DNA of 64,000 nucleotides from Paramecium tetraurelia (taxonomy: Eukaryota). The translations under genes and the position numbers were made by a program. How positions within the stretch are numbered: position 1 is the first letter of the stretch; each line of letters starts with the position of its first letter. The stretch is taken from positions 186,001-250,000 of the forward strand of contig CT868274.1 of the NCBI GenBank assembly GCA_000165425.1, in the 5' to 3' direction. Positions 4,501 to 52,662 of this stretch are shown one piece after another. Under the pieces are notes generated by a model that saw only the letters and a list, made by a program, of their open reading frames with translations, ran no database searches and had not been told where the DNA came from.

Positions 4501-5631
4501 CTTTCGGCTGGTAGTGCTTTTGGATTTTCACAAATGCAACCAATGCTCATCAATGCACTGGTCTTCTATTGTGGAGCTTTATTAGTAAAATATGAAAACT
4601 TGGATGTAAATGATATGTTTAGAGCAATCTTCGGAATTACATTTGCTACTATGGGTGGTGCTAGAGACTCTCATTTTGTAGGAGATGTTGAGAAGGGTAG
4701 AACAGCTGCTAAAAACATTTTTGAGATCTTGGATTCAGTTGATGAATTCTAAATTGAAGAATGTAAATATTTGCATATTATATTTAGAAAAATAATTCAA
4801 GAAGTTAAAGACTTAAATTAAAGGACATATTGAATGCAAAAATTTGACATTCAAAATACCCAACTAGAGAAAAGAATGTCTTTACTAATTTAAGTTTAAC
4901 AATTCCTTCTGGCTAAAAGGTTGCCTTTGTTGGATCAAGCGGGTGTGGTAAATCAACCATTATGTAAATGCTTATGAGATTCTACGATCCAGATTAAGGA
5001 GAAATATTGGTTGATGGATTGGATATTAGGGATTACGATATTAGGCATTTGAGAAAATAATTAGCTATTGTATCATAAGAACCAGTTCTATTTAATGGAA
5101 CTATTAAAGAAAACATCCAGTATAATAGTCAAAATATCACTATGGAATAAATCGAATAGGCTGCCAAAAAGGCTAATGCTTATGACTTTATTGTTAATGA
5201 CTAATTTGAAAATGCTCCAGATGAGAAACAATAAGACTTTGGAAAAGGATTTCATAAAAGAGTAGGACCAAAAGGATCACAAATATCAGGAGGATAAAAA
5301 CAGAGAATTGCTATAGCTAGAGCAGTACTTAGGAATGCTAGCATACTTTTACTGGATGAAGCCACAAGTGCATTGGATGCTAAGTCTGAAGAAATTGTAT
5401 AAGAAAGTCTTAATAACATAATGAAAGAAAATACTACGTTGTCAATTGCTCACAGAATTTCAACTATCAAAGTAATAAATAATATAATATACTTAGGATT
5501 CTGATATAATCTACGTGTTTGATAATGGTATGATCGTAGAATAAGGTACTTACAATTACTTGGTTGGCCTCAAATAATTCTTTTACAGAATGGAATAAGG
5601 GATAGCCATTAATTCAACAAAAAATTCTTGA
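1535..5631 (+). CDS. Full-length ABCB/MDR (P-glycoprotein-like) ABC transporter, TMD-NBD-TMD-NBD; two apparent +1 frameshifts
   Basis: Walker [10 protein letters not shown] and GSSGCGKST, signatures [14 protein letters not shown] and [14 protein letters not shown], Walker [11 protein letters not shown] twice; about five short GT..AG introns (e.g. 1822-1849, 2132-2154); extra A near 3050 and near 4855. Confidence 0.95.
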
Positions 5632-38334: not shown

Positions 38335-41300
38335 TCATTTCAAAGCCAATCTGACTTAAGGGATTCCCTTGATAATCTCTTAACTCTCCTAATTCAATGT
38401 GAAATTGATAGTCAAATCAACATATTTCTAATAAAATTAATAGTATATCATACCTGTATTTCTAAAACTTTAATAATTGGTTGGTCCAAGAAGTGCTTTT
38501 TCTCATCTGGCTTTTTAGCATACATGATCTCCATGTACACAGGTTAAGCCTTCAAGAAAACATCTCTTGGATGCAAATCATATTATTAATTCAGAATTTC
38601 AAATAATTATCTGAAAGTAGTTGACTTTGTAATTTCATGTGCCCATATATCCCATAATGTAACTGTGACTTTTTCATTGATTTTCTTCTTTGGTACTAAC
38701 CCTGGCTCAGTCAATTTCACAAAAGGAATTGCTAAATTGACAAAGGCGTTTTTCATATCTGAAATCTAGACATTCTTCAAGGTCTTAATCAACTCAATTG
38801 TCTATAGGCCAGCAACAACAGCAGTAGTAGTAGCCAAAGCAGGTACAATACGTCCAGCTTTAATTTTCACAGTCAGCCAATCCATAGATTCTAATTTATA
38901 ATTTGCAGCCCTTAGATTGCCGAAATGAATGAATGAAGTCGATGTGTCCATTTTAATCGTTATCCTTTTCAAATTCATCAGATGCTAAAGTGATGGGTAA
39001 TAAGGATTTAAATTATTTGAATAACAGTTATGTTTCTTCTTAAGTGCTTTGGGCTTGAGTAGTCTCATTCTCTTCAGGTTCTTCTTTTTATCCTTGCTCT
39101 TTAACCTTATCAGAAATAGACTAAAATAATTATCAAACTCATAAATACCTTCTTCTTCTCTTCGCTTGGTTGCCATTCAGGGAAAGTGATAAGATTGGCT
39201 TACTTAGCTACTTATTGTCTATAAGCTTTAGTTCTCCAATCTTTATCAGTTTCGAGACCGAACATTTTGGCTCTGAGGAAAGCAAAGGTTGATACAAATT
39301 ATTGATGAATTTCATTTTCAGGATCAAATTAAATAGCCTTGGGAGGTCGTTTAGGCATAGTCCAAAATAGATTGCCATCCTTAGTCTTAGCATCTTCTGG
39401 ATATGTATACATCAATTATTTAATGTCATTAACAAAGTATTTCTAGAATTTCCCTCTTGCCCACTTAAGACAATCTTCTAAAGAATTTGGTTTGTTCTTC
39501 AACAATTTGATGCCTTCTCTCAAAGGCTTATTGTCTTCTAGACTGGGCAAGTAATCATCTGCCATCATTTTTATTAATTGCTTTGGTCTTGCTGAAAAAT
39601 GTTTACCAAACTTATCCTTTGCAAACTCAACGCAATGGAAAGTCTCTTCTGGGAACATCTTTAGTGTGCAATATGGAATTTCTCCTTCTTCGACAGGATC
39701 ATTAGAGCTACCATATGATTCAGTTTAAAATGGAATGATGCATTGTACATGACCTTTTGGTCCAAGAGTACCTGATTCTAAAAGTGGCTTGCGAGCATTT
39801 ACACATCGTTTGTCGACATATCTTCTAGCAGCTACATTGTCAAGAGCATTAGCAATAATGTCTTAGTCTTCAAAGAATTGATCTGTGTATATGTGTTCTG
39901 TTGAATCATGAACCTTATCAAGTCTGGCTATGATGTGATCTCTCAAATATGGGTTCATTTAAATAACAGCAGCAGCAGCTGTCTAAGACTTTGGTTTTCT
40001 TAAATGTTTCTCCCTGAATAAGAATTACCTATTTAGATTACTGACCTCGATGTGATCAGGATCAGTTATTGTGATAGATCCCTTCACTCCTAAGTTAAGC
40101 ATAGCAAAATTCTTGAGTAGTTCACAACCTATTGCACCACATCCAACCATGAATATTTTAGATTTCTCTAATTTTTCAGCAATTTCTGTACCCAAGAATC
40201 TACTTAAAGACCTTTCACTTATTTTGACATCCTTGGATATCTCTTTTTGTAACACTTCAGTGCAATCCACATAAAATAGTTGTTAAACTGGAGTAAACTT
40301 ATTTGTTATTCCCTTAATAGCCTCTTGTGACACGAATCCTCCAAGATAAGCAGACAAAGGTGAAAATTCTCCTTAAACAGAGTAATGTTTGAATATGGAC
40401 TCGAAATCCTAATCTTTGGTTTACTTATTGTTATAAAGATTATGAAGATGTTCAGTATTTTGCAATTTGATAAAATCGTATTCTGACATATTTGGATCAT
40501 AAATTGGCTTATCAATGAATTCTTAATTGTAGGGTTGGAATGATAATTCAACAGGTACTTTAACCAATTTAATAGTTCCATTTCGAATGTATTTTTGAAT
40601 ATCCATTCTAATTGTATCTCCAAGACTGATTTACTAATTACTTTAACCTTTTAAATGGTTTTGTTAATTGAAATTCCATTTGAGTCTACCATTCCTTCAA
40701 TATTATCAATCATTACAATATCATTATCCTAAAATTCATGTTTACCTGTGATTTCAAAGTGCAACTTATTTTCCCCTTTATCAGTAACTGATTTAACAAT
40801 ATAATCAACAGTTTGTTCCCCATTCTTATCCTCAACTATGAATGATTACCCAAAGTCATTGAATACTCTTCCGAAGACTCCATCAACTGAACTTATAATT
40901 AATTTCACCTTATTTTAACGACATAATGTAGATAATTTGAATAATACATCATTTGGATATGTAGCACAGATTACTACAATGCTGTATTTAGTGAGATCGA
41001 TATTAAGGAGTTCTGAGGTTTCATAATTTACTCTAACGTATGAATTGAGCTATTGCAATTTTTCCCAACTTACTTCAGCCCTGTTTTTGCCAATATCTTT
41101 TTCTTCAATGAAAAATTAACCATTAAGATCATATTAAGTGCATTTCTATTGATCATGAATAGTTAACATTTTGACTCCTGATAATACTATGTTTTTGGCT
41201 ACTTCAATACCCAAGGCTCCAATGCCAGATACCAAAACACAACTATTTGCCTATTTCTTCACTGCATCCATACCCATAGCACCAATGTATCTACTCCATC

Positions 41301-41385
41301 TATCTAAGACATTTTCATCATTTGCTTCGAATTCCTTCTATTGAATCTTTGTGTATGTAACATCTACTTCATCTAAATTGGCCAT
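38335..41385 (-). other. Ubiquitin-activating E1 module (IAD-FCCH-AAD-SCCH-UFD) of the giant gene
   Basis: [91 protein letters not shown], catalytic [11 protein letters not shown] (Cys codon 39668-39670), [25 protein letters not shown]. Confidence 0.97.
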
Positions 41386-44300
41386 TCCCTCTTTTACATT
41401 TTTAACTTTAGGTTGTTTCTTGACGTGAAGTCCTTAGTACCCTGGATCCTTCTAAATCAGCAGCAGAAGGTGGCTAAATCTTATTCAATTCTTCCTCTAA
41501 TTCTTTAACAGCCTCTGACAACTTCTTATGATATGCTTTCTTGCTCTTTTTGAATTCACTGCACCAACTGGAATTGTGATCATTTAGTAACCCAGTATAT
41601 ACTGCTTCTTTGGTATCTGCAAGTTCAACCCACTTATTGCATTCCTCCAAGATTTCCTATTTCTTAAGATAGAAGTGTCTCCTAATAATAGTTTCAAATC
41701 CTTTTGGTGGATCTCTAATCTAGTCTATCATAGCATATTTAATGTTGCAATATCTGACAATATTAGAATATCCTTCATTTTTCTTTTCACCTTCATCTGT
41801 GTTTGCTTCCTATTCAAAGCCTGGTTCATTGAAATACACCTCTTCACTCATAATAATAGCTTGAGTGGACACTAAAACTTAAAGGAGAGTGGAGATTTTT
41901 GGATCCCAATTTTCAGATGCATTTCCTCTCCATGTACCTAAGAGTGACAAACATACTTTTCCACAACTATACAAATTAGGATTGAATCTGACTTTTCCAT
42001 TTCCTGTAGTAGATAAATTCATTTTAGGGGGAGCATTCGGGTATGAATCATCAGCATAAATATCAAATAGAAAGGCACCATGTGCATAAGGAGTTCCTTT
42101 TGCACCCATAACAAGTGCCTTCATCACATCTACACGTTCTTTGTCAGCTCTTACAAATATGGCATTAGTGTGTTCAATTGGTAAGGATGTTGACATATCT
42201 GCAAATTCTTAGGCTAATCTTACGATCTTATCTTGATTTATCTAAGTAGAAATGTTTCCTGAATAGTGATGCTTATATCTGCCACCCACCTTCATATCAA
42301 TATAGCTGAATCTCAAATCTGACAACAAGGTTCTGTATGCTTCAGGTAGATTTTTGGATAGAATCTCTGCGATCAACTCATTTGCTAATTCTTTCTATTT
42401 CTTGAGTTGTTCAGTCTCATCCTCTTCATTGCTACTACTACCACTATCATTCATCTTATTGATGCAATTTTCCATTCGTTTATGAGTATCTATAATCATT
42501 TTGGCAATCTCAAATGAGTGTTCTTCCTCTTCATTCTTCTTTCTATTATTTTGGACGCAATTCATAAAGATTCTGGATGTGTCAGCCAATGCACTTAACA
42601 ATTCAAATAATGATTATGTTTAAGGAGGATAATACTATTCTGGAATCTTTAAGAAAACACTGGCCAATACTTTGTGTTGTGACATGGATTAAACTATCTT
42701 CAGATACTTACAATACAACTCGAATTCCTTTGATATTTCCAAAAGTGAACCACTTCTGAATGCACTTTCTAACAGAGGCAATAATGCACTTTCAAACAAT
42801 GTATTCTTTAATTTATGTAATAGTTCTTCACTTGGATGCCAATGTTAGAAATCAAAGAATGACTCTACTATACCCAGTAATCCAATTAATTGTTATGACT
42901 TTTAGGTTTTCTTCTCCACATATTCTATCGTATTCCATTTCTAATTTTACCCAGTATTATCACTTGCATATCCTACTCCTCTCTTCTACTTTGTTGATTT
43001 CTGCAATGTGTTATTTTTCTAAGGTGATTCTTAAACCACTTATTCCTCAACCTTATTTCTAAATTCTCTCTTAGTCTCCCTACTAACCAATGCTATTCTA
43101 TCTAGGATTTGCTTAATTAAATTCTATTCCAAAGCCTTTATTCTTACTTCTGGTCCACTACTAGCACTGAATACATTTACGAGGGTGGTATAAATGAACT
43201 TAACAGCATTCTGTTCCTCCTCTTCTAATTTCTTGTTATTACTTGAATCAGGAGGTCCAGCAATTAAATCAAACAATAAATTGACACATTATTGATTCTT
43301 CATGAACAAATTAAAAAAGTTAGGTAATTGACAGAATGATTGCAATTCATTTAAAAATTATAGCCAAGAATTGGCTCGTTGTTAATTCTTCCATTATCCA
43401 ATTCCTTCTCTAATTACAGATAACATAGCATTTACACCATTTAGTTCTTCAAACAAGGGGAATATTGTTAATTGTTATGGATATGTGAATGATGATGTTT
43501 TAGGGTGGATGTTATCAATGAACTCTCTTGCATTTATTACCAACTCAATAATATTTTATTAATTTGTAGGTAACTCATTCAATTTTTACTGGTTCTCAAA
43601 TATATTGCATTCCTGTTTTAATCCATATTTGTTGAATACGATCAATTGTTTCAATTCACATAATTTCAATTAACTTGGTAATTAGTAAACTGGAACAACA
43701 CTGTAATATAGGAGTGATTGATTGGTTTCATAATTAGGGAATAGTAAACTAGTAGTTTCTTATGGTATATTAATTTAAGGCAATGTCTTCTTTTACTTTT
43801 AAGGTCTGACTCCCTGAAACATAATATTCAATCTTTAAATTGTCTAGACTTCCCTAGTCTTTTAGATTAAATGATGCCAAATTGATTCTGGATGGTTCTC
43901 CTGGGACATATTCAATTTCCAAAAATACTTTATCATTATTTTAGAATGTTAAGGTTCCTTGTTCATCATATATTTCAATTTAAGCATTGATGTCAATTTC
44001 CTCATTGACAATAAGATTATTTTCATTGAAATAAAACACTTTCATCTTCCCTTGATTCCAACTGTATGTTAAATCTAATTTATCTGATTTTGTGCATTTC
44101 ACATTATGATACAAGATAATAGTTTTGTCTACATTATTGATTCTATAATTGATAACCATCATCTAAGGAGAGGAATTAAAGAATTTATCTTCCAAATGTG
44201 GTAACATGTCTGAATCTCCATCATTCTTCTAAAAAGCCACCTTATTCCAATAGGTCTCGCTTATATGAGCAAATAATTAATCTCTTTATTTAATTGTTAG

Positions 44301-47300
44301 TAATAATGATTCGAATACTAATTCATCCTGCTTTTGAGTATTGTCTATTTATTTCTAAGCAATAAACTTTGGATCCAAAATAAATTTGCCTTAATCTTCA
44401 AATTGAATCTTCAAGAAAACATAATCCTCACTGTTCAAAATTGGAACCAACAAGGATCTCACGAATTTCATATCTTTGTTTCCTTCCAATCTGCCAATAT
44501 CTCGTATCAAGGCTTCGATTATGAATTTTGCATGATACTTCTACACCATGTAGCTGATGAATTTGGCTGCCAATTCTATAGTTTTATCATCGAATTGTTT
44601 CAAGATGGTTTTGCATGAGGGTTCTTCGATTAATGAATTATAGAGAGGGAGAAGGTATTTGAGTAGATGATCAGCAATCTTCTTATTCGTCGATAGAGTA
44701 TAAAAGAATTAGATGACGTAGTTCAATTCAAATTTACCAAAAATTGAATCCAACTGATTGATAATCCAATCAATGCTTACTCTATTTCCCAAAGCTAATG
44801 GTCCAAGCACTTCAAAGAAGTATGGTTAGGTTCTACTCTTATCCAAAGTAAACTACAATATCTATTCCACTTCTTCAAAATCTATTCATAAGGATGTGGG
44901 AGATAAGTGATGGTTACTATCAGTTTGATTAGCAAATGTCTGGCATGTTTGTTATGCAACAATTAGAACAATTCAATCAGATGTATGATATCATTTTTGC
45001 TGATATTTAGTGAAAGTTCCCTTTATTTCAATTTGCTCTTTTGCAATAACAGAACATTGCAATAGGATTCAATGAAATGCTAAGCCAATTTTTCATACCA
45101 TAATAGATCTTACTGCTGATGATTGTTGATCTGTAGAGCCAGCAATTTCTGAAATAGATGGTTGTGCAATTTCAAGAACCTTTCATGAACATGTTCTCCT
45201 TCCAAATATTATCTAACTCAGTAATTTACTATGTGATTACTCAGGGTATTCCATCAATTTGACTACTAACCAATCTCCGACCTCGTGATTATATTTAGCA
45301 ATTGCCAATATCAAAGGACTCAATTGAAATGAATAAGAATTGAGTGCATTCATGAACTTGTTGATATTGTTTTGGAGTTGTTCTAATACGATGGAATCAT
45401 TGGCCAATTGTTGCAAAGTCTTTTTGGTAATTGGGTTTACAGAACTTGGATAGAATATCGATAGCCGTCTTCTCTTATAATGTATAGATGAAATCAACTT
45501 TTTATCTACTAGAAGCATAACCCAAAACTGAAATAAAACTGATGCCTAAGCACAGCTTTTTAATAGCTTTGGATACATCCAATTGTTCTACATATTGTTA
45601 TCTCATTCTAAAGCTGATGAATTTGACAGATTAACCAGGAGGCAATTGCTGCTTATTCATGAGTTGAGAATTGTAACAAAATACTTTGACTTGGTATTGT
45701 GAATAATATTCGTCATTAATTAATTGCATCTCAGCAATTGGATATAGTTCCTCCAATGATTTTCCTACTTCTAATAGGACACTACTGGGAGTGCCTAAAT
45801 ATTTGTCAGCAAAATCAGCAGTGAATGTTTGAATACCCAATCTGATATTTTTGATTTCGATTTCATTATCCAACTAGAATACCATTTAATATTCACTTCT
45901 CATTCCCTCATGGGAGAGTGATTAGAGCTAATCTACTCTTCGCTCCTTTCTTGTGCAATGGCCAATCCTAATTGGATATATTTTGTCCTGGCAAATTGAA
46001 AACTTTCATCTTATTGCCGAACTCCTCCTCCAAAAACTAGACTTGTGTGATTTGTTTCTCCTTGATGATCTTATTTATTAGGTAATGATAGATGTCTGAT
46101 TGGAATTGTTATGCAACATCATCTGAAATTAAATACTTATCAAATTGTTATTGGATCACTTCCAAAATCTGAGATGTGTATGTGAAAGCAGTGTATGAAG
46201 TGATCTAACTATTCTCATATTGATTAACTATCACATCGTCAATGTAATATTGCTATTGGAATATTTACTGTAACATGTATTATTTGCATGGCAATAATTC
46301 AAATAATTAATCCAATGAATCGCTCACTTATTTGAGTAATTTTCCAGCATAGCTATGCAATTTGTTCCCAGAATAAGAATTCAAGCAGTACCATTCAAAT
46401 AAACGATTTAAGTCTGGACTCTCACTTAGTTGTGCTAGTGTTTATTCACTTTGCAATAGTAAATAGATCATTGATTAACAGAGTTCCAATTATTCGATCA
46501 ATCGACTATCAGCATTGATGATTCCATCCATTCCTCCTAGATAAGGTAGATACGATCCTATATATTTGAGTAATATGTTGACATTATTCAAATAGATCTG
46601 TTATACCTCTTAGGAGAATACTATGAAGATATGCTTGATGTCATTTTAGCTTAAATGAGGCAATAAGGCTTCTATTATTTAAGAGCATGTCTGATTTTAT
46701 TGCACTTATTGTTATGCCAAATTCAAGGTGAATTATAGCAATTCATTCATCAATAATTTCTATTTGCATCCTAAGTAAGACTGGATTACTCTGTGATAGA
46801 TTTGTAATTCATTCTACAATTAAGGAGTTATCATCAATATCACCTTTAGTACTTTATTCCAAATTATATATTTCTCTGACTTCTCTAATAGGATAATTAA
46901 TCTATTTATTGTATCTGGATAACAAATTTGGATATGTTATCTTTGCAAGAAGTCCTCAAAGTCAGCTAATTGTTTATTATTGCCTCTGGTCTTTAATTTA
47001 TTTACCTTCTTAACACTTCTTGTCAGAAAGTCGAATAATAAGAGCAAATTATCGATCGTTAATTTTTCTACGTTGTTTTTTATGTAGATTTAACAGAAGT
47101 ATATTGAGGTATTTTTGAAATGTAAATCAAACTATCCTTCTCAATTTATAAAATGTTATTAATTTGATCACTCAATAAGAGTGTGGCTGCCCAGTCTGTA
47201 TATCTACTTTCCAATTATTTGGGTTAGAACAGAAGGTCTAACAAAGTTTTGAATTTCTCTGGGTACTGCATTCCTTTTGAAAATAATTCTGTTAAGACGT

Positions 47301-50300
47301 TTTCATTCAATGAATTCTTAATTTAAAGGGTACTGCATTTTTGTAATGCATTTTACAATAAATTCAATCTAAATTTACTATCATTGATTAGAAATTCAAG
47401 AATAAATCCTAACATCCTTTCATTTTCTGGATTCCCATCTTCTGTTTATTTTATTTATGGCAATCTTTAAAGTTGAGTTACTAGTGCATCATACAGAATG
47501 TCATCATTCAATTCAATTAGTTTCTACAGTGATTCCAATATGGGTATTGGTAACTAATGCAATAACTTTTTCTTTAGACTGTTTTCACTTGTAAATTATT
47601 CTATTATCAATTAATTCCATTGTTCCTCAGGTATTTACATTTTAACCTTCTTTTGAATAAATTACAAAGCTATATCAGTAATTCCTTTCAAATCTCCTAG
47701 TGATATGATGAGATGGATGAATTCTAATGCGTCTGGTACTCTGCCAGAGATGGCAATCAGCATTCTCATTAAAAGAGATGAGAAGACTGTCAAGAAATTG
47801 GAATTGTTTTCGTAGTTTCTTGGGGGGGCTACTTTCAAAAATTCAAGTTGAGTTTATTCAATAAGACTCTGAAGATGACTAGTTTGTAATTTACACTTCT
47901 CCTTCAATTGCATTTCTGATTACAATTTGTATATTGCTTGTTCTAAATAATCAGCATTTCTCCTCAATGATTTAGTTGACATCACTATGTAATGGTCAGT
48001 CAAATCAGTCTTTTTAATAACATTGTATGAGTCCATGAGTATAGATTTATCTGACTAATACACATAGTAGAGGGTTTCTCCTATTGATAAGGTAGTCTTA
48101 TATCTAAAATCTTCTGTGATATCTAGTGGACACAATTCAGCATTTAAAAGAGACCCGTAGAATTCTGGAATGACAGTCAAGTAATTCTATGGAATCTACA
48201 ATTAAGCTGCTTATTTGGAATAATAATTATCACTTCCCAAAGTTAATTGCACTAATAATTTACGTGCTCTAACTCCATTAAGTCCAATGTGAAAACAATT
48301 GTAATTATGATAATTGGCACATTTATGAACATAATCTGTGAATTGTACAAAGGTCCATTCATCATAAACTTGATCCAACACCAAATTGTCTACCCAAACT
48401 TAGACTCTAAATTTGACTGAGTTTGATGTCTATTAAAATCTTAAAGACAATTTCTCAATCTCAAATTCCCCAAGAAGATTGACTTCAAATCTTCTAATTT
48501 ATTATTTATTTGACAATTGCATAATTAGAATCTAAGACAGAGGGTCTTTTTAGCATATTAAAGATTTCTAATTGCCAGTTTATTCAACTGAGATTTCATC
48601 AATTTCTTAGATTTGTACTTATCCTTGAGGTCCTCCATATTTAGTAGAAAATAAGAACATGTCTTTATGTTACATACTTTTCAACTTTTGTAATGCAAAC
48701 AACAGAGATTTCATAGCAATATCTATGATTTCTTGTGGTTTAAATTTGGCTGTATATGTTATTAATCCCAAAAAGTACTCTAAGCCACTTTCTGTTAAAA
48801 CTACTTTTTCAATCTTGTTAAATATCTGTTAAGCCACCTACAACAATATATCATGAAATTCATCGTGTTGTTGGAGTTGTCTGAAGAATTCTGTGACTTA
48901 TTCATTTACATCCTAGGATAACACATTTCCAAGGATGAATTTAGATAGGTTAATAACTTCTAACACTTTCTTGGATTCTTTCTTCATGAATAAATTAAGA
49001 ACAGTCAAAGCACCTGGTTTTTTTTGGTATACTTATTCGACTAGACTATCTAATTGATTGATTTATAAATTGTTGTATTTCTTACCAGTCACAGTCACCT
49101 TTAATAATTTATATTGTGAATCATCATGTGGTTTAATAGTGAAGTCTCCTGAATAAACAGTGTCAAATTCAATTATACCATTACTTGGATATCCATTCAT
49201 TCCTTGATATTTACATTGAACAGCCAATTTCTCAGGTAAATCAATTCTTTTCCTAAGTTAGTTTAACAATTGGCATTCTTAGATTGCTCCAACAGTTGAA
49301 TGCTCACTTTAGGTCTTAGGTATTTCTTTTCCGAAAGCAGCAAACCCTTTGATTTCAATGGAGTTAGTCTAAAAATGAGCTGTATGATCATGAGGTGTTT
49401 TTCTAAAATTGGTTGGTTTAAGCATGATATATTTGCATGGTCTTATAACTTCCAATTGACAGAATGCTTCTTTGGATTCTGCTTCAAATTCAAAGTATCC
49501 AACTGGTTCATTTGCATGTAGACTTTAATGAGTTGATTTCCACTTTTCATATTGTTGTTTGTCAAAGTTATCAAATTCTGAAGTGTCATTCAACTCATGT
49601 TCTTCTTTTGATATAAAGATCAATCCCATTCCAATGGGGAATCCTCTGAAAACATTGGTGACCTCACTTTTAATTATGACATGATCCACAAGCATAGCCT
49701 CATCAAATTGGCTTCGGAATATAAATTAGGTCTTAGGATAGTTACTAGAGAAGGGTTTATTACTATCAAAGAGCATTTAAGTAACAAATGTTTAATCATT
49801 AAAGGAGGCTCCTTTAAAGGAATGGACAGTTAAAGGTAATTTTTAAGGATCACTAACAGTCAATGGACTATTCATCAATAGGATTTGTTTTGGTTCCTCA
49901 ATGGGTCCTTCAAATACAGCCTTAATGTGGATGTGAGTGAAATTATCTCCTATATGAATTCCCTATATATGGATATCATCCGTAACTGTTTAGAAGATCT
50001 GCACTTCTTCACTTTGAATGATGTTATTCTTTAGGATTTCAGAATTGTCTTCAATTTACTTGTGTTGAGTGTTACTCTCATACCAGATGATATTATCTTT
50101 AATGTAAGCATTTGAAATGGGTTCTTAAATTTCAGAGACATTCAATTGAGAGTCAATGATGAAATTTTTTGATTGACTATAAATTAGGCATTTAGTTTTG
50201 GAAATGACTAGATCATAATTGACTCCAATGAATATTTACTTCTAAAATTCAATTTTGGAGTTTTGAGTGATCTCATAAATGCTTATAGCTTGATCACCAA

Positions 50301-52662
50301 TCAAGAAGACATAGAGTCTATTATTCCAAATGGCACTCTCAATGGTCTTAATATCAAATTCTGCTTAGATTGCCTTGTGATCAGCCTTAATCATCTCCAA
50401 TCTTTTGCAATGTTTACTATACAGAGGAGCCAGAGTCTCAACTATTTATCTACTTGTTTCTGATTGCAACAATAATGAGTAATCCTTATTTTTACTCCAG
50501 CAATTTGTTAATACACAATAATAGCCATCGTCATTGATAAAAAATTGATCCAAATACTTTTATGAATATGATATGAATTTAATAGAGAGTACATTTTTAT
50601 TATGTATACTGGCAACTAGAACTGGGAACATGGTGTTATTGCTATTCCAATGGATAACAGTCACATAATCAATAGCACTTTCTGTAATTTTATCTTTTAA
50701 ATCCTAACTGATCTCTTCATTCTCATCGACTTCAACCAAATCTTATTGAATTTACAATTATTATTTGATAACAAATTACTCTATCTGTTCATCTGGTTTT
50801 TGAGCATTACAAGCCTCACAATTTTGATTGGTCTCCTTATTAACCAAAGTGCAAATACTGCATTGCCATTCTCCACTGGTGCTCACAATGTCAAGTGCTT
50901 TATCGAAATTGTTATTAGTTTGAATAAGAGCCTCTTTACAAGCTGATTCCTCGAAATCCATTGCAACTAACTTCTCAAGCATTGCTTAATCATATAATGG
51001 TAGTTGTTCAGTTTCGCCAGTAATATAGTTTTCCAATATTTTATATATGTGACTTGGTGTTTCTTCTGATTGAACATCAATTTTCTTCTTGTTTTTCTGA
51101 TAGGGTCCCAATTGTCTCAAATCTACATCAATGACTTTAAAGAGTTCAGCTTCACCGTTGTAAATAGATATTGAATCTTGATATCTCAATGAGAAGTAGC
51201 GATCACTTTTGCTTAGGATTCTTTCACCCTAAGCCTGTATTTCACTTCGCAATATTAACTTGGAATGTTTGGTTCCATTGTTATTGATTTCATCATCGCA
51301 ATATGCATATTTGACTCCTTAAACCTGGTTATAAGTATTTTCCATATTCAACAACATTGAATGGATTTTCTGTTGCTGGATGATCTGCGAATGTTAACAA
51401 TCTCATCTTTGCAGACTCTATGCTTCTAACCTCTTCAAATTATTCTATCAATTAAACAAGTATTCTCTCTGCTATTCTGCATTGTTCTATAGAATATTTG
51501 TATTAAAATTCATCCTTTTTTTCTTCCTGAACAATCTCCTCATTTATTGGCAACATCTACGTTATTTCCCTGCAATAATTAATCATTCTCCTTTCTCTTA
51601 GGGTTTGCTCTCGAATTTCTCCTTCAACTTCCTCACATGATGTTTTAAATATTGTCTTATCCTTTTAAGTTTCTTTGATGCTTCCTCGTCCAAAATTAAA
51701 TATACTATCTCATTGTCCTCCTGATAATTGCACATCACCAACTTCATCTTTATTAGTACCTCTAATTCTGCCTTGGGAATTTGTTAGCCTACCAATGGAC
51801 AATTTCGAACAGACACTAATCGATCTTGCAATTGGTGAATTTCATTTCTATCTATATCATATTATCGATACTTATTCATCGTGAAGGAGGCATTCGAATG
51901 CTACATTTACTAACTCTAAAGCTAGACTTGTTCTAATTGCTCTACTACACTGCGATCCTCATACTTCATTGTCAAATGCACCGAATTCCCAAATTGCGAT
52001 AGTCTAACACAAGGGTACCAAGGACCTGAAATCAGAGTGCCCTTTGGTATGCCTTTGTTAGTGCTCAGATTGCCATTCAAGTAGAATTACAGTGATTGCT
52101 CGTTGAAATTAAGAAGCACACCCACCACTCTCTGCGTTGTCGTTTTAAATTCGAATAGGTGTCCCTCAAAATTTTCGCTTGGAGATTACTATTTGGATAT
52201 GCCAATCTGCAATTAGGACTACGCCTTACTTTCACTCCTTCTGTATTAAAAGGGCATACGATTTCCCAATAATGAACGCCCTCGCTGAAGCATATATTCG
52301 CTATTGCTAGACCACTGGAGTCCTTTGCTGGATTAAGCTGCTAAATTGTTGTGCCTTAAAGCGATGCCACTGTATGTGGTGTTAAATGTGAAAAGAACAT
52401 AAATTAAATAATTCCCCTGATACTTTCTGAACAGGTATTTAGATTAATGTTCAAGAATGAAATACACTTATTTATCTATATCATTTTTTATATCCTAACT
52501 CAACATCCCAATCCAAGACTCTCCCTTCTTTTGTACCATACCAAAGAATGACTTTAAATTTAATTATTCATTCTGAATAAGGGGAATTCTATTTATTAAA
52601 TTATAGCCTTATGTATATTATAATAAAATGCTTCTATTTGAGTATTGTGAACTAACCATCAT
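38335..52662 (-). CDS. Giant multidomain ubiquitin enzyme: SPRY-UBA-RanBP2 ZnF-scaffold-BIRC6/BRUCE-type E2-UBA6-like E1 fusion (about 4,600-4,700 aa; several apparent 1-nt frameshifts; start approximate)
   Basis: Uninterrupted coding-like DNA with no AT-only intergenic spacer over 14.3 kb; domains listed separately below; TGA at 38335-38337 after the UFD-like tail KGIPQVRLALK. Confidence 0.75.
41640..42990 (-). other. BIRC6/BRUCE-type UBC (E2) domain with its conserved upstream helical region
   Basis: KRGVGYASD...[95 protein letters not shown] (Cys codon 41951-41953), [19 protein letters not shown]. Confidence 0.93.
50790..50990 (-). other. UBA domain followed by a RanBP2/NZF-type zinc finger within the giant gene
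   Basis: [32 protein letters not shown] then [25 protein letters not shown], which carries a TL at the NZF ubiquitin-binding positions. Confidence 0.88.
51960..52340 (-). other. SPRY/B30.2-like domain near the N-terminus of the giant gene
   Basis: [46 protein letters not shown]. Confidence 0.85.

Follow-up and report, generated by a model that had tools for sequence, protein, structure and literature searches.

The break between the E2 and E1 reading frames in a 64,000-nt stretch of Paramecium tetraurelia macronuclear DNA (contig CT868274.1, positions 186,001 to 250,000, called the window here and analysed as a whole) is in all probability an assembly artefact: we put the probability at about 0.92 that the window has one spurious base at 41428/41429 and that the gene simply reads through. 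The extra T, on the coding minus strand, would belong to the class of 1-2-nt insertion errors of the Sanger macronuclear assembly, and a BIRC6-like E2 module would run directly into a UBA1/UBA6-like E1 module via an uninterrupted, conserved linker of ~150 residues. The real gene would then be free of any intron, stop or internal start here, leaving nothing for splicing to switch.

The window is AT-rich (21-34% G+C in 2-kb steps), and its long frames exist only if TAA and TAG are translated as glutamine, TGA being the sole stop codon in its genes. As written, the E2 frame ends at a TGA, and the first ATG of the E1 frame, which is open from further upstream, precedes that stop (Table 1), in agreement with an original prediction made from the letters alone. 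Excision of the 22 nt at 41440-41419 does join the two frames, yielding exactly the peptide quoted in that prediction, and the G+C content given there for this candidate intron (10/22) is also correct. The junction had been said to need either this atypical intron or a single indel, the two being held equally plausible. Our evidence supports the indel and speaks against the intron: the 1-nt error is favoured by all four sequencing runs compared, by the frames that its removal joins and by the linker of the ohnolog.

Table 1. Coordinates of the gene, its domains and frames, and the candidate features at the E2-E1 junction, as positions in the window.
Feature	Position	Strand	Details
Whole gene	38487..52400	-	tblastn of the 4620-aa ohnolog P0123: 12 segments, 72-96% identity
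UBC (E2) core, BIRC6-like	41756..42220	-	PF00179, E 7.4e-20, residues 95-249 of the translation of window:41429-42502(-)
First ThiF adenylation domain of E1	40861..41286	-	PF00899, E 2.6e-21, residues 48-189 of the translation of window:40609-41427(-)
FCCH	40612-40746	-	Pfam, unaltered window translation
Second ThiF domain of E1	39653-40204	-	PF00899, E 1.6e-50, in window:39149-40591(-)
SCCH domain of E1	39152-39652	-	PF10585, E 4.2e-46, in window:39149-40591(-)
E2 frame	41369..44041	-	890 codons, final TGA 41371-41369
Apparent E2 stop TGA	41369..41371	-	out of frame after removal of the extra letter; the 1923-codon frame passes through
E1 frame	open from 41484	-	first ATG 41385-41383
Overlap of open E2 and E1 frames	41372..41484	-	113 nt; the frame change must fall here
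Extra letter, most probably spurious	41428..41429	-	either T of a TT pair in the coding strand (plus-strand AA); context ...GGACTTCACG...
Broken frames fused	44885-43731, 44041-41372, 41484-40087, 40696-39113	-	by deletion of five letters
22-nt candidate intron GTACTAAGGACTTCACGTCAAG	41419..41440	-	GTA..AAG; in fact coding linker
34-nt pseudo-intron of P0003	41391..41424	-	GTC..AAG; P0003 reads ...GSRVLRTS then QGMANLDE...
Convincing intron	39121-39148	-	28 nt, GTATTT..TTTTAG, 4/28 G+C; joins ...EEKKK to SISDKVKEQ...

The base is missing from independent sequencing of the same locus. A search listed 24 runs, of which 20 contain the stretch or part of it and 3 are RNA by record, and we compared the contigs of four of the 24, from four different studies, with the window over 38700-44200. 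Run X18 is RNA-Seq by record and carries a different organism code; X15 and X1 were guessed to be RNA and X5 is of unknown kind, the records of these three giving none. X1 and X5 carry the label of the main organism, and contig totals of 35-53 million letters make the runs compatible with transcriptomes. Letter 41428 is missing from the contigs of all four runs at 100% of contig depth (91.2/91.2 in X18, 44.2/44.2 in X15, 71.6/71.6 in X1 and 201.4/201.4 in X5): the molecules sequenced in these runs lack the base. Among the observations that would refute it, the original prediction had named DNA reads with a 1-nt indel that makes the linker continuous without splicing; such an indel is what the four runs contain, although none of them is DNA by record. 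Record 4 of X1 (1766 nt, 40473-42241) has 0 other letters and three one-letter gaps relative to the window, and record 28 of X5 (1511 nt, 40730-42241) has 0 other letters and one gap. The lack of any substitution in the two contigs indicates that this locus, and not the ohnolog, is their source, and that the missing base does not mark a diverged allele or paralogue. From the ohnolog, the gene models of sister species and published polishing of the assembly, we infer that the base is likewise missing from macronuclear DNA of the reference strain. Metagenome contigs searched with the window letters around the site and with a 1-2-letter gap gave 0 matches.

Two other features of the run contigs were observed. 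X18 differs from the window at full depth at 10 listed positions, in 40971-41038 and 41720-41781, whereas X1 and X5 do not; X18 is a distinct strain or a close sister lineage, likewise without the extra base. X1, X15 and X18 also have a second contig over 42491-43019 (529 nt) with 37 other letters, and X5 has a 479-nt contig over 42491-42969 with 35 other letters. These second contigs, ~7% diverged, occur alongside the exact-match contig, and the one at 42491-43019 is probably a transcript or DNA of the ohnolog.

Four further letters, at 38923, 40592, 40608 and 43812, are missing at full depth in four of four runs, and at each of them this gene changes frame. (X15 and X5 have nine-letter loose ends at 40593, which consist of the preceding window letters and were clipped owing to the gap at 40592.) Deletion of all five letters by script turned four broken open reading frames into one frame of 1923 codons, which, with TGA as the only stop, is not a chance product. 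In the unaltered window translations, the frame that ends in ...GSRVLRT stops at 41429 and the next begins at 41427, with exactly one letter between them, and tblastn of P0123 against the window places frame changes at 43813, 41427, 40609/40594 and ~38936, the sites of the missing letters. Once the letters are removed, a long open frame in agreement with the homologues is regained, and its linker is a single residue different from that of the ohnolog. Beyond the compared stretch, the same tblastn search gives more frame changes in this gene on the minus strand, at ~52190, ~47108, ~45907, ~45430, ~45206 and ~44878, several of them without an obvious AT-rich GTA..TAG intron; some of these six may be additional 1-2-nt assembly errors.

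A base that was real in the Sanger-sequenced DNA, as a strain-, clone- or macronucleus-specific frameshift in an ohnolog decaying in that line only, could also be missing from other material, and the runs leave some room for this reading, since none is DNA by record and X18 is differently labelled and has its 10 listed differing positions. We nevertheless regard it as highly unlikely. Natural divergence would yield mostly substitutions, whereas X1 and X5, from the main organism, have 0 substitutions over 1.5-1.8 kb and single-letter gaps only, and all five gaps correspond to window insertions that break an otherwise open 1923-codon frame. Strains d4-2 and 51 differ, moreover, at only a few loci, while the assembly had more than 10,000 such insertions, according to the available passages of Arnaiz et al. 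2012 (PMC3464196).

The base therefore appears to be an assembly error and not a genuine variant in the DNA that was sequenced. The P. tetraurelia genome measures ~72 Mb. Illumina reads, some of them from the same DNA sample, served to polish the 13x Sanger assembly of strain d4-2; in the process, according to the available passages of Arnaiz et al. 2012 (PMC3464196), “10,339 insertions of 1-2 nt were removed”. The insertion errors of this 2006 assembly, which the polished strain-51 reference no longer has, resemble what is found here: a single extra base that breaks an open frame, is missing from short-read data and has no substitutions beside it. All five sites are single insertions without adjacent substitutions and fit the class that was polished out, although their local density, 5 in 5.5 kb, exceeds the genome-wide average that 10,339 errors (PMC3464196) would imply for a genome of the size given above. 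The public model P0003 includes residues that are possible only with the extra T, indicating that the window is the unpolished sequence behind that model. Imprecise excision of an IES was considered as a cause and set aside, there being no TA at the site and the five sites being left unexplained by it.

Protein homologues read the linker without a break. Among 1018 candidates, the translation of the E2 frame matched 244 proteins at E <= 0.001, 120 of which were listed; P0003, a P. tetraurelia (macronuclear) protein of 2601 aa, covers 93% of the query part at 100% identity. A second protein search gave nine proteins among 78 candidates of 4553-5000 residues. The original prediction had proposed an alignment to the ohnolog and to sister-species orthologs, and this alignment bears out the indel: the linker is continuous in the P. 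tetraurelia ohnolog P0123 (4620 aa, 92% identity) and in P0124 of P. sonneborni (4650 aa, 90% identity) and P0125 of P. pentaurelia (4625 aa, 92% identity), the last two with only R/K, V/I and E/D changes. Among the first 24 aligned homologues that span the junction, the motif x-[IV]-N-[IV]-x-x-G-[VM]-A-N-L-[DE]-x-[IV]-D-V lies just before the E1 domain, which assigns the corresponding residues of the window to coding sequence and rules out candidate introns that remove them, including the annotated 34-nt one; the alignment of the motif fits excision of the 22-nt intron as well as an indel upstream of ~41408. We then scored the readings of the junction against profiles. With 75 homologue segments, the sequence with 1 nt removed scored best, at 301.3 bits, followed by the 22-nt intron at 295.4 bits and, at 284.3 bits, the annotated 34-nt intron; in a profile of the 12 closest homologues, 1-nt removal scored 332.5 bits versus 327.9 for the 22-nt intron. 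The margin of 1-nt removal over the 22-nt intron is modest, at 5-6 bits, and has the same direction in both profiles.

Paramecium introns average 25 nt, and low G+C goes with efficient splicing, according to the available text of PMC8997360. The 22-nt stretch shares with these tiny spliceosomal introns its GT..AG ends (GTA..AAG) and its length, which is within ~20-35 nt and near the 25-nt mean (PMC8997360). It could be a real tiny intron, 21 nt long in the reads, that is spliced in some transcripts to give two linker isoforms or a regulated product, and contigs could miss a minor spliced form. The other attributes of the stretch differ from those of Paramecium introns. Its G+C content is 45%, as against 14% for the intron at 39148-39121, the only convincing one in the compared stretch. 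It is retained in RNA, the X18 RNA-Seq contig including it at full depth, and any contig with the 1-nt gap at 41428 necessarily includes it. It is conserved as in-frame coding sequence: P0123, P0124 and P0125 encode VL[RK]TH[VI]K there, so that the seven residues lost by excision (VLRTHVK) are conserved. In the reads, that is, without the spurious base, the stretch is 21 nt long, in frame and stopless, and splicing is therefore unnecessary. Finally, the 113-nt overlap contains 12 GT..AG pairs of 12-60 nt, eight of which are of length 3n+1 and repair the frame by chance; the 22-nt candidate is no better than this chance expectation. No splice joint was seen over 38700-44200 in any of the four runs, in contigs that may miss minor forms or tiny introns. 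The convincing intron at 39148-39121 likewise has no joint in these runs, indicating that the contigs are seemingly blind to tiny introns, or unspliced, and missing joints are consequently no evidence against splicing in general. Taken together, a real intron at 41440-41419 has only a very remote chance of being correct. The suggestion that splicing or retention of this stretch switches between the full fusion and an E2-only or NMD-targeted product finds no support, since the stretch is in the RNA-Seq contig, its residues are conserved and no splicing is needed.

Other candidate introns in the overlap fared no better against the conserved sequence. The 25-nt candidate at 41397-41373 (GTAAAAG..TTTAG) has better-looking ends than either the 22-nt candidate or that of P0003, but it deletes the conserved GMANLD, as do those at 41406-41373 (34 nt) and 41424-41373 (52 nt), in which the same residues, conserved in the closest homologues, are lost. 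The candidates at 41424-41391 (34 nt), 41406-41391 (16 nt) and 41440-41389 (52 nt) lose some or all of KNVKE and score below read-through, and the profile scores of the 19-nt candidate at 41424-41406 and of the 22-nt one are also lower than that of read-through. The first of the KNVKE-removing candidates is the 34-nt intron of P0003, and its one recommendation as the true junction is that it is the deposited annotation. It begins with GTC, removes KNVKE, which is conserved in homologues, scores 17 bits under read-through and is needed only owing to the extra base; we give it next to no credence.

If all four runs are RNA, as they may be, a difference between DNA and RNA is formally possible, in which the five letters are real in macronuclear DNA and are removed or skipped by single-base deletion editing of RNA, by transcriptional slippage or by +1 frameshifting. 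Such a process would amount to RNA-level single-base deletions at five sites, including the junction, within one gene. We know of no such editing in ciliate nuclei. Ribosomal frameshifting works only on an RNA that carries the base, and a programmed +1 frameshift on an mRNA that keeps the extra base is contradicted by the RNA-Seq contig, which is without it. The gene models of the ohnolog and of the two sister species are derived from DNA and are also without an extra base, and the published polishing removed insertions of this kind using DNA reads (PMC3464196, in the passages available). An explanation at the level of RNA or the ribosome is, in our view, barely credible, and a spurious base in the assembly remains the preferred reading.

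With the spurious base removed, the falsely broken linker follows the UBC core and precedes the first ThiF domain in a single chain. PF00179, PF00899 (twice), PF16190 and PF10585 are found in abutting translations that lie in one frame after correction. The E2 side of P0123 matches BIRC6 chains over ~570 residues (E 3.1e-72), and its E1 side matches UBA1 (2.5e-161) and UBA6 (4.6e-155). PF00179 and PF00899 occur together in 78 of 120 proteins among the matches listed, and the listed homologues with both domains include Tetrahymena, Ichthyophthirius, Pseudocohnilembus and many environmental sequences. Judging from these domain combinations, the fusion of a BIRC6-like E2 to a UBA1/UBA6-like E1 in one chain is widespread.

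A literature search found no eukaryotic E2-E1 fusion; in the passages it returned, only bacterial Cap2 is described as an E1-E2 fusion. Its matches on E1-E2 concerned bacterial Cap2/CBASS or viral E1-E2 glycoproteins, with none on ciliates among the matches listed, and the available passages of PMC12999496 and PMC12355090 contain no mention of a eukaryotic fusion. Cap2, the E1-E2 fusion of CBASS (PMC12355090, in the same passages), has both activities in one chain, as predicted for the Paramecium protein; it is, in contrast, small and bacterial and has a cGAS-like enzyme as its target, whereas the protein described here is eukaryotic and ~4600 aa long. In its modules, the protein resembles BIRC6 (BRUCE), a giant E2/E3, and its E1, UBA6, whose E2 and E1 modules both have a match in P0123. 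In animals, E2 and E1 are separate proteins, whereas in Paramecium both reside in one protein of ~4600 aa.

The E1 part of the Paramecium protein seems to end within the ubiquitin-fold domain (P0123 residues ~4530-4620; window ~38487-38900, minus strand). The match of P0123 to human UBA1 ends at chain residue 996 of 1058, and Pfam did not find PF09358 in P0123; the domain is present in many relatives among the matches listed. A fused E2 might make an E2-recruiting domain dispensable.

These results also bear on the public annotation. P0003 covers only 46834-38797 (minus strand) of a gene whose ohnolog has 4620 residues, and the model is wrong at the E2-E1 junction, where it uses a non-existent 34-nt intron. 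Elsewhere, too, P0003 seems to have been patched, as it changes frame at places (near 43928-43913 and around 40716-40637, for example) that differ from those of the extra letters defined by the reads. The break at the junction represents an ordinary, known class of reference error and not a splicing switch, and any other frame break in this assembly calls for a comparison with reads before a biological reading is given to it. The E2-E1 fusion is obligate, its conserved linker being part of one continuous frame, and this junction consequently gives rise to no E2-only product. The fusion could serve as a natural “Rosetta stone” for the pairing of BIRC6 with UBA6 in animals.
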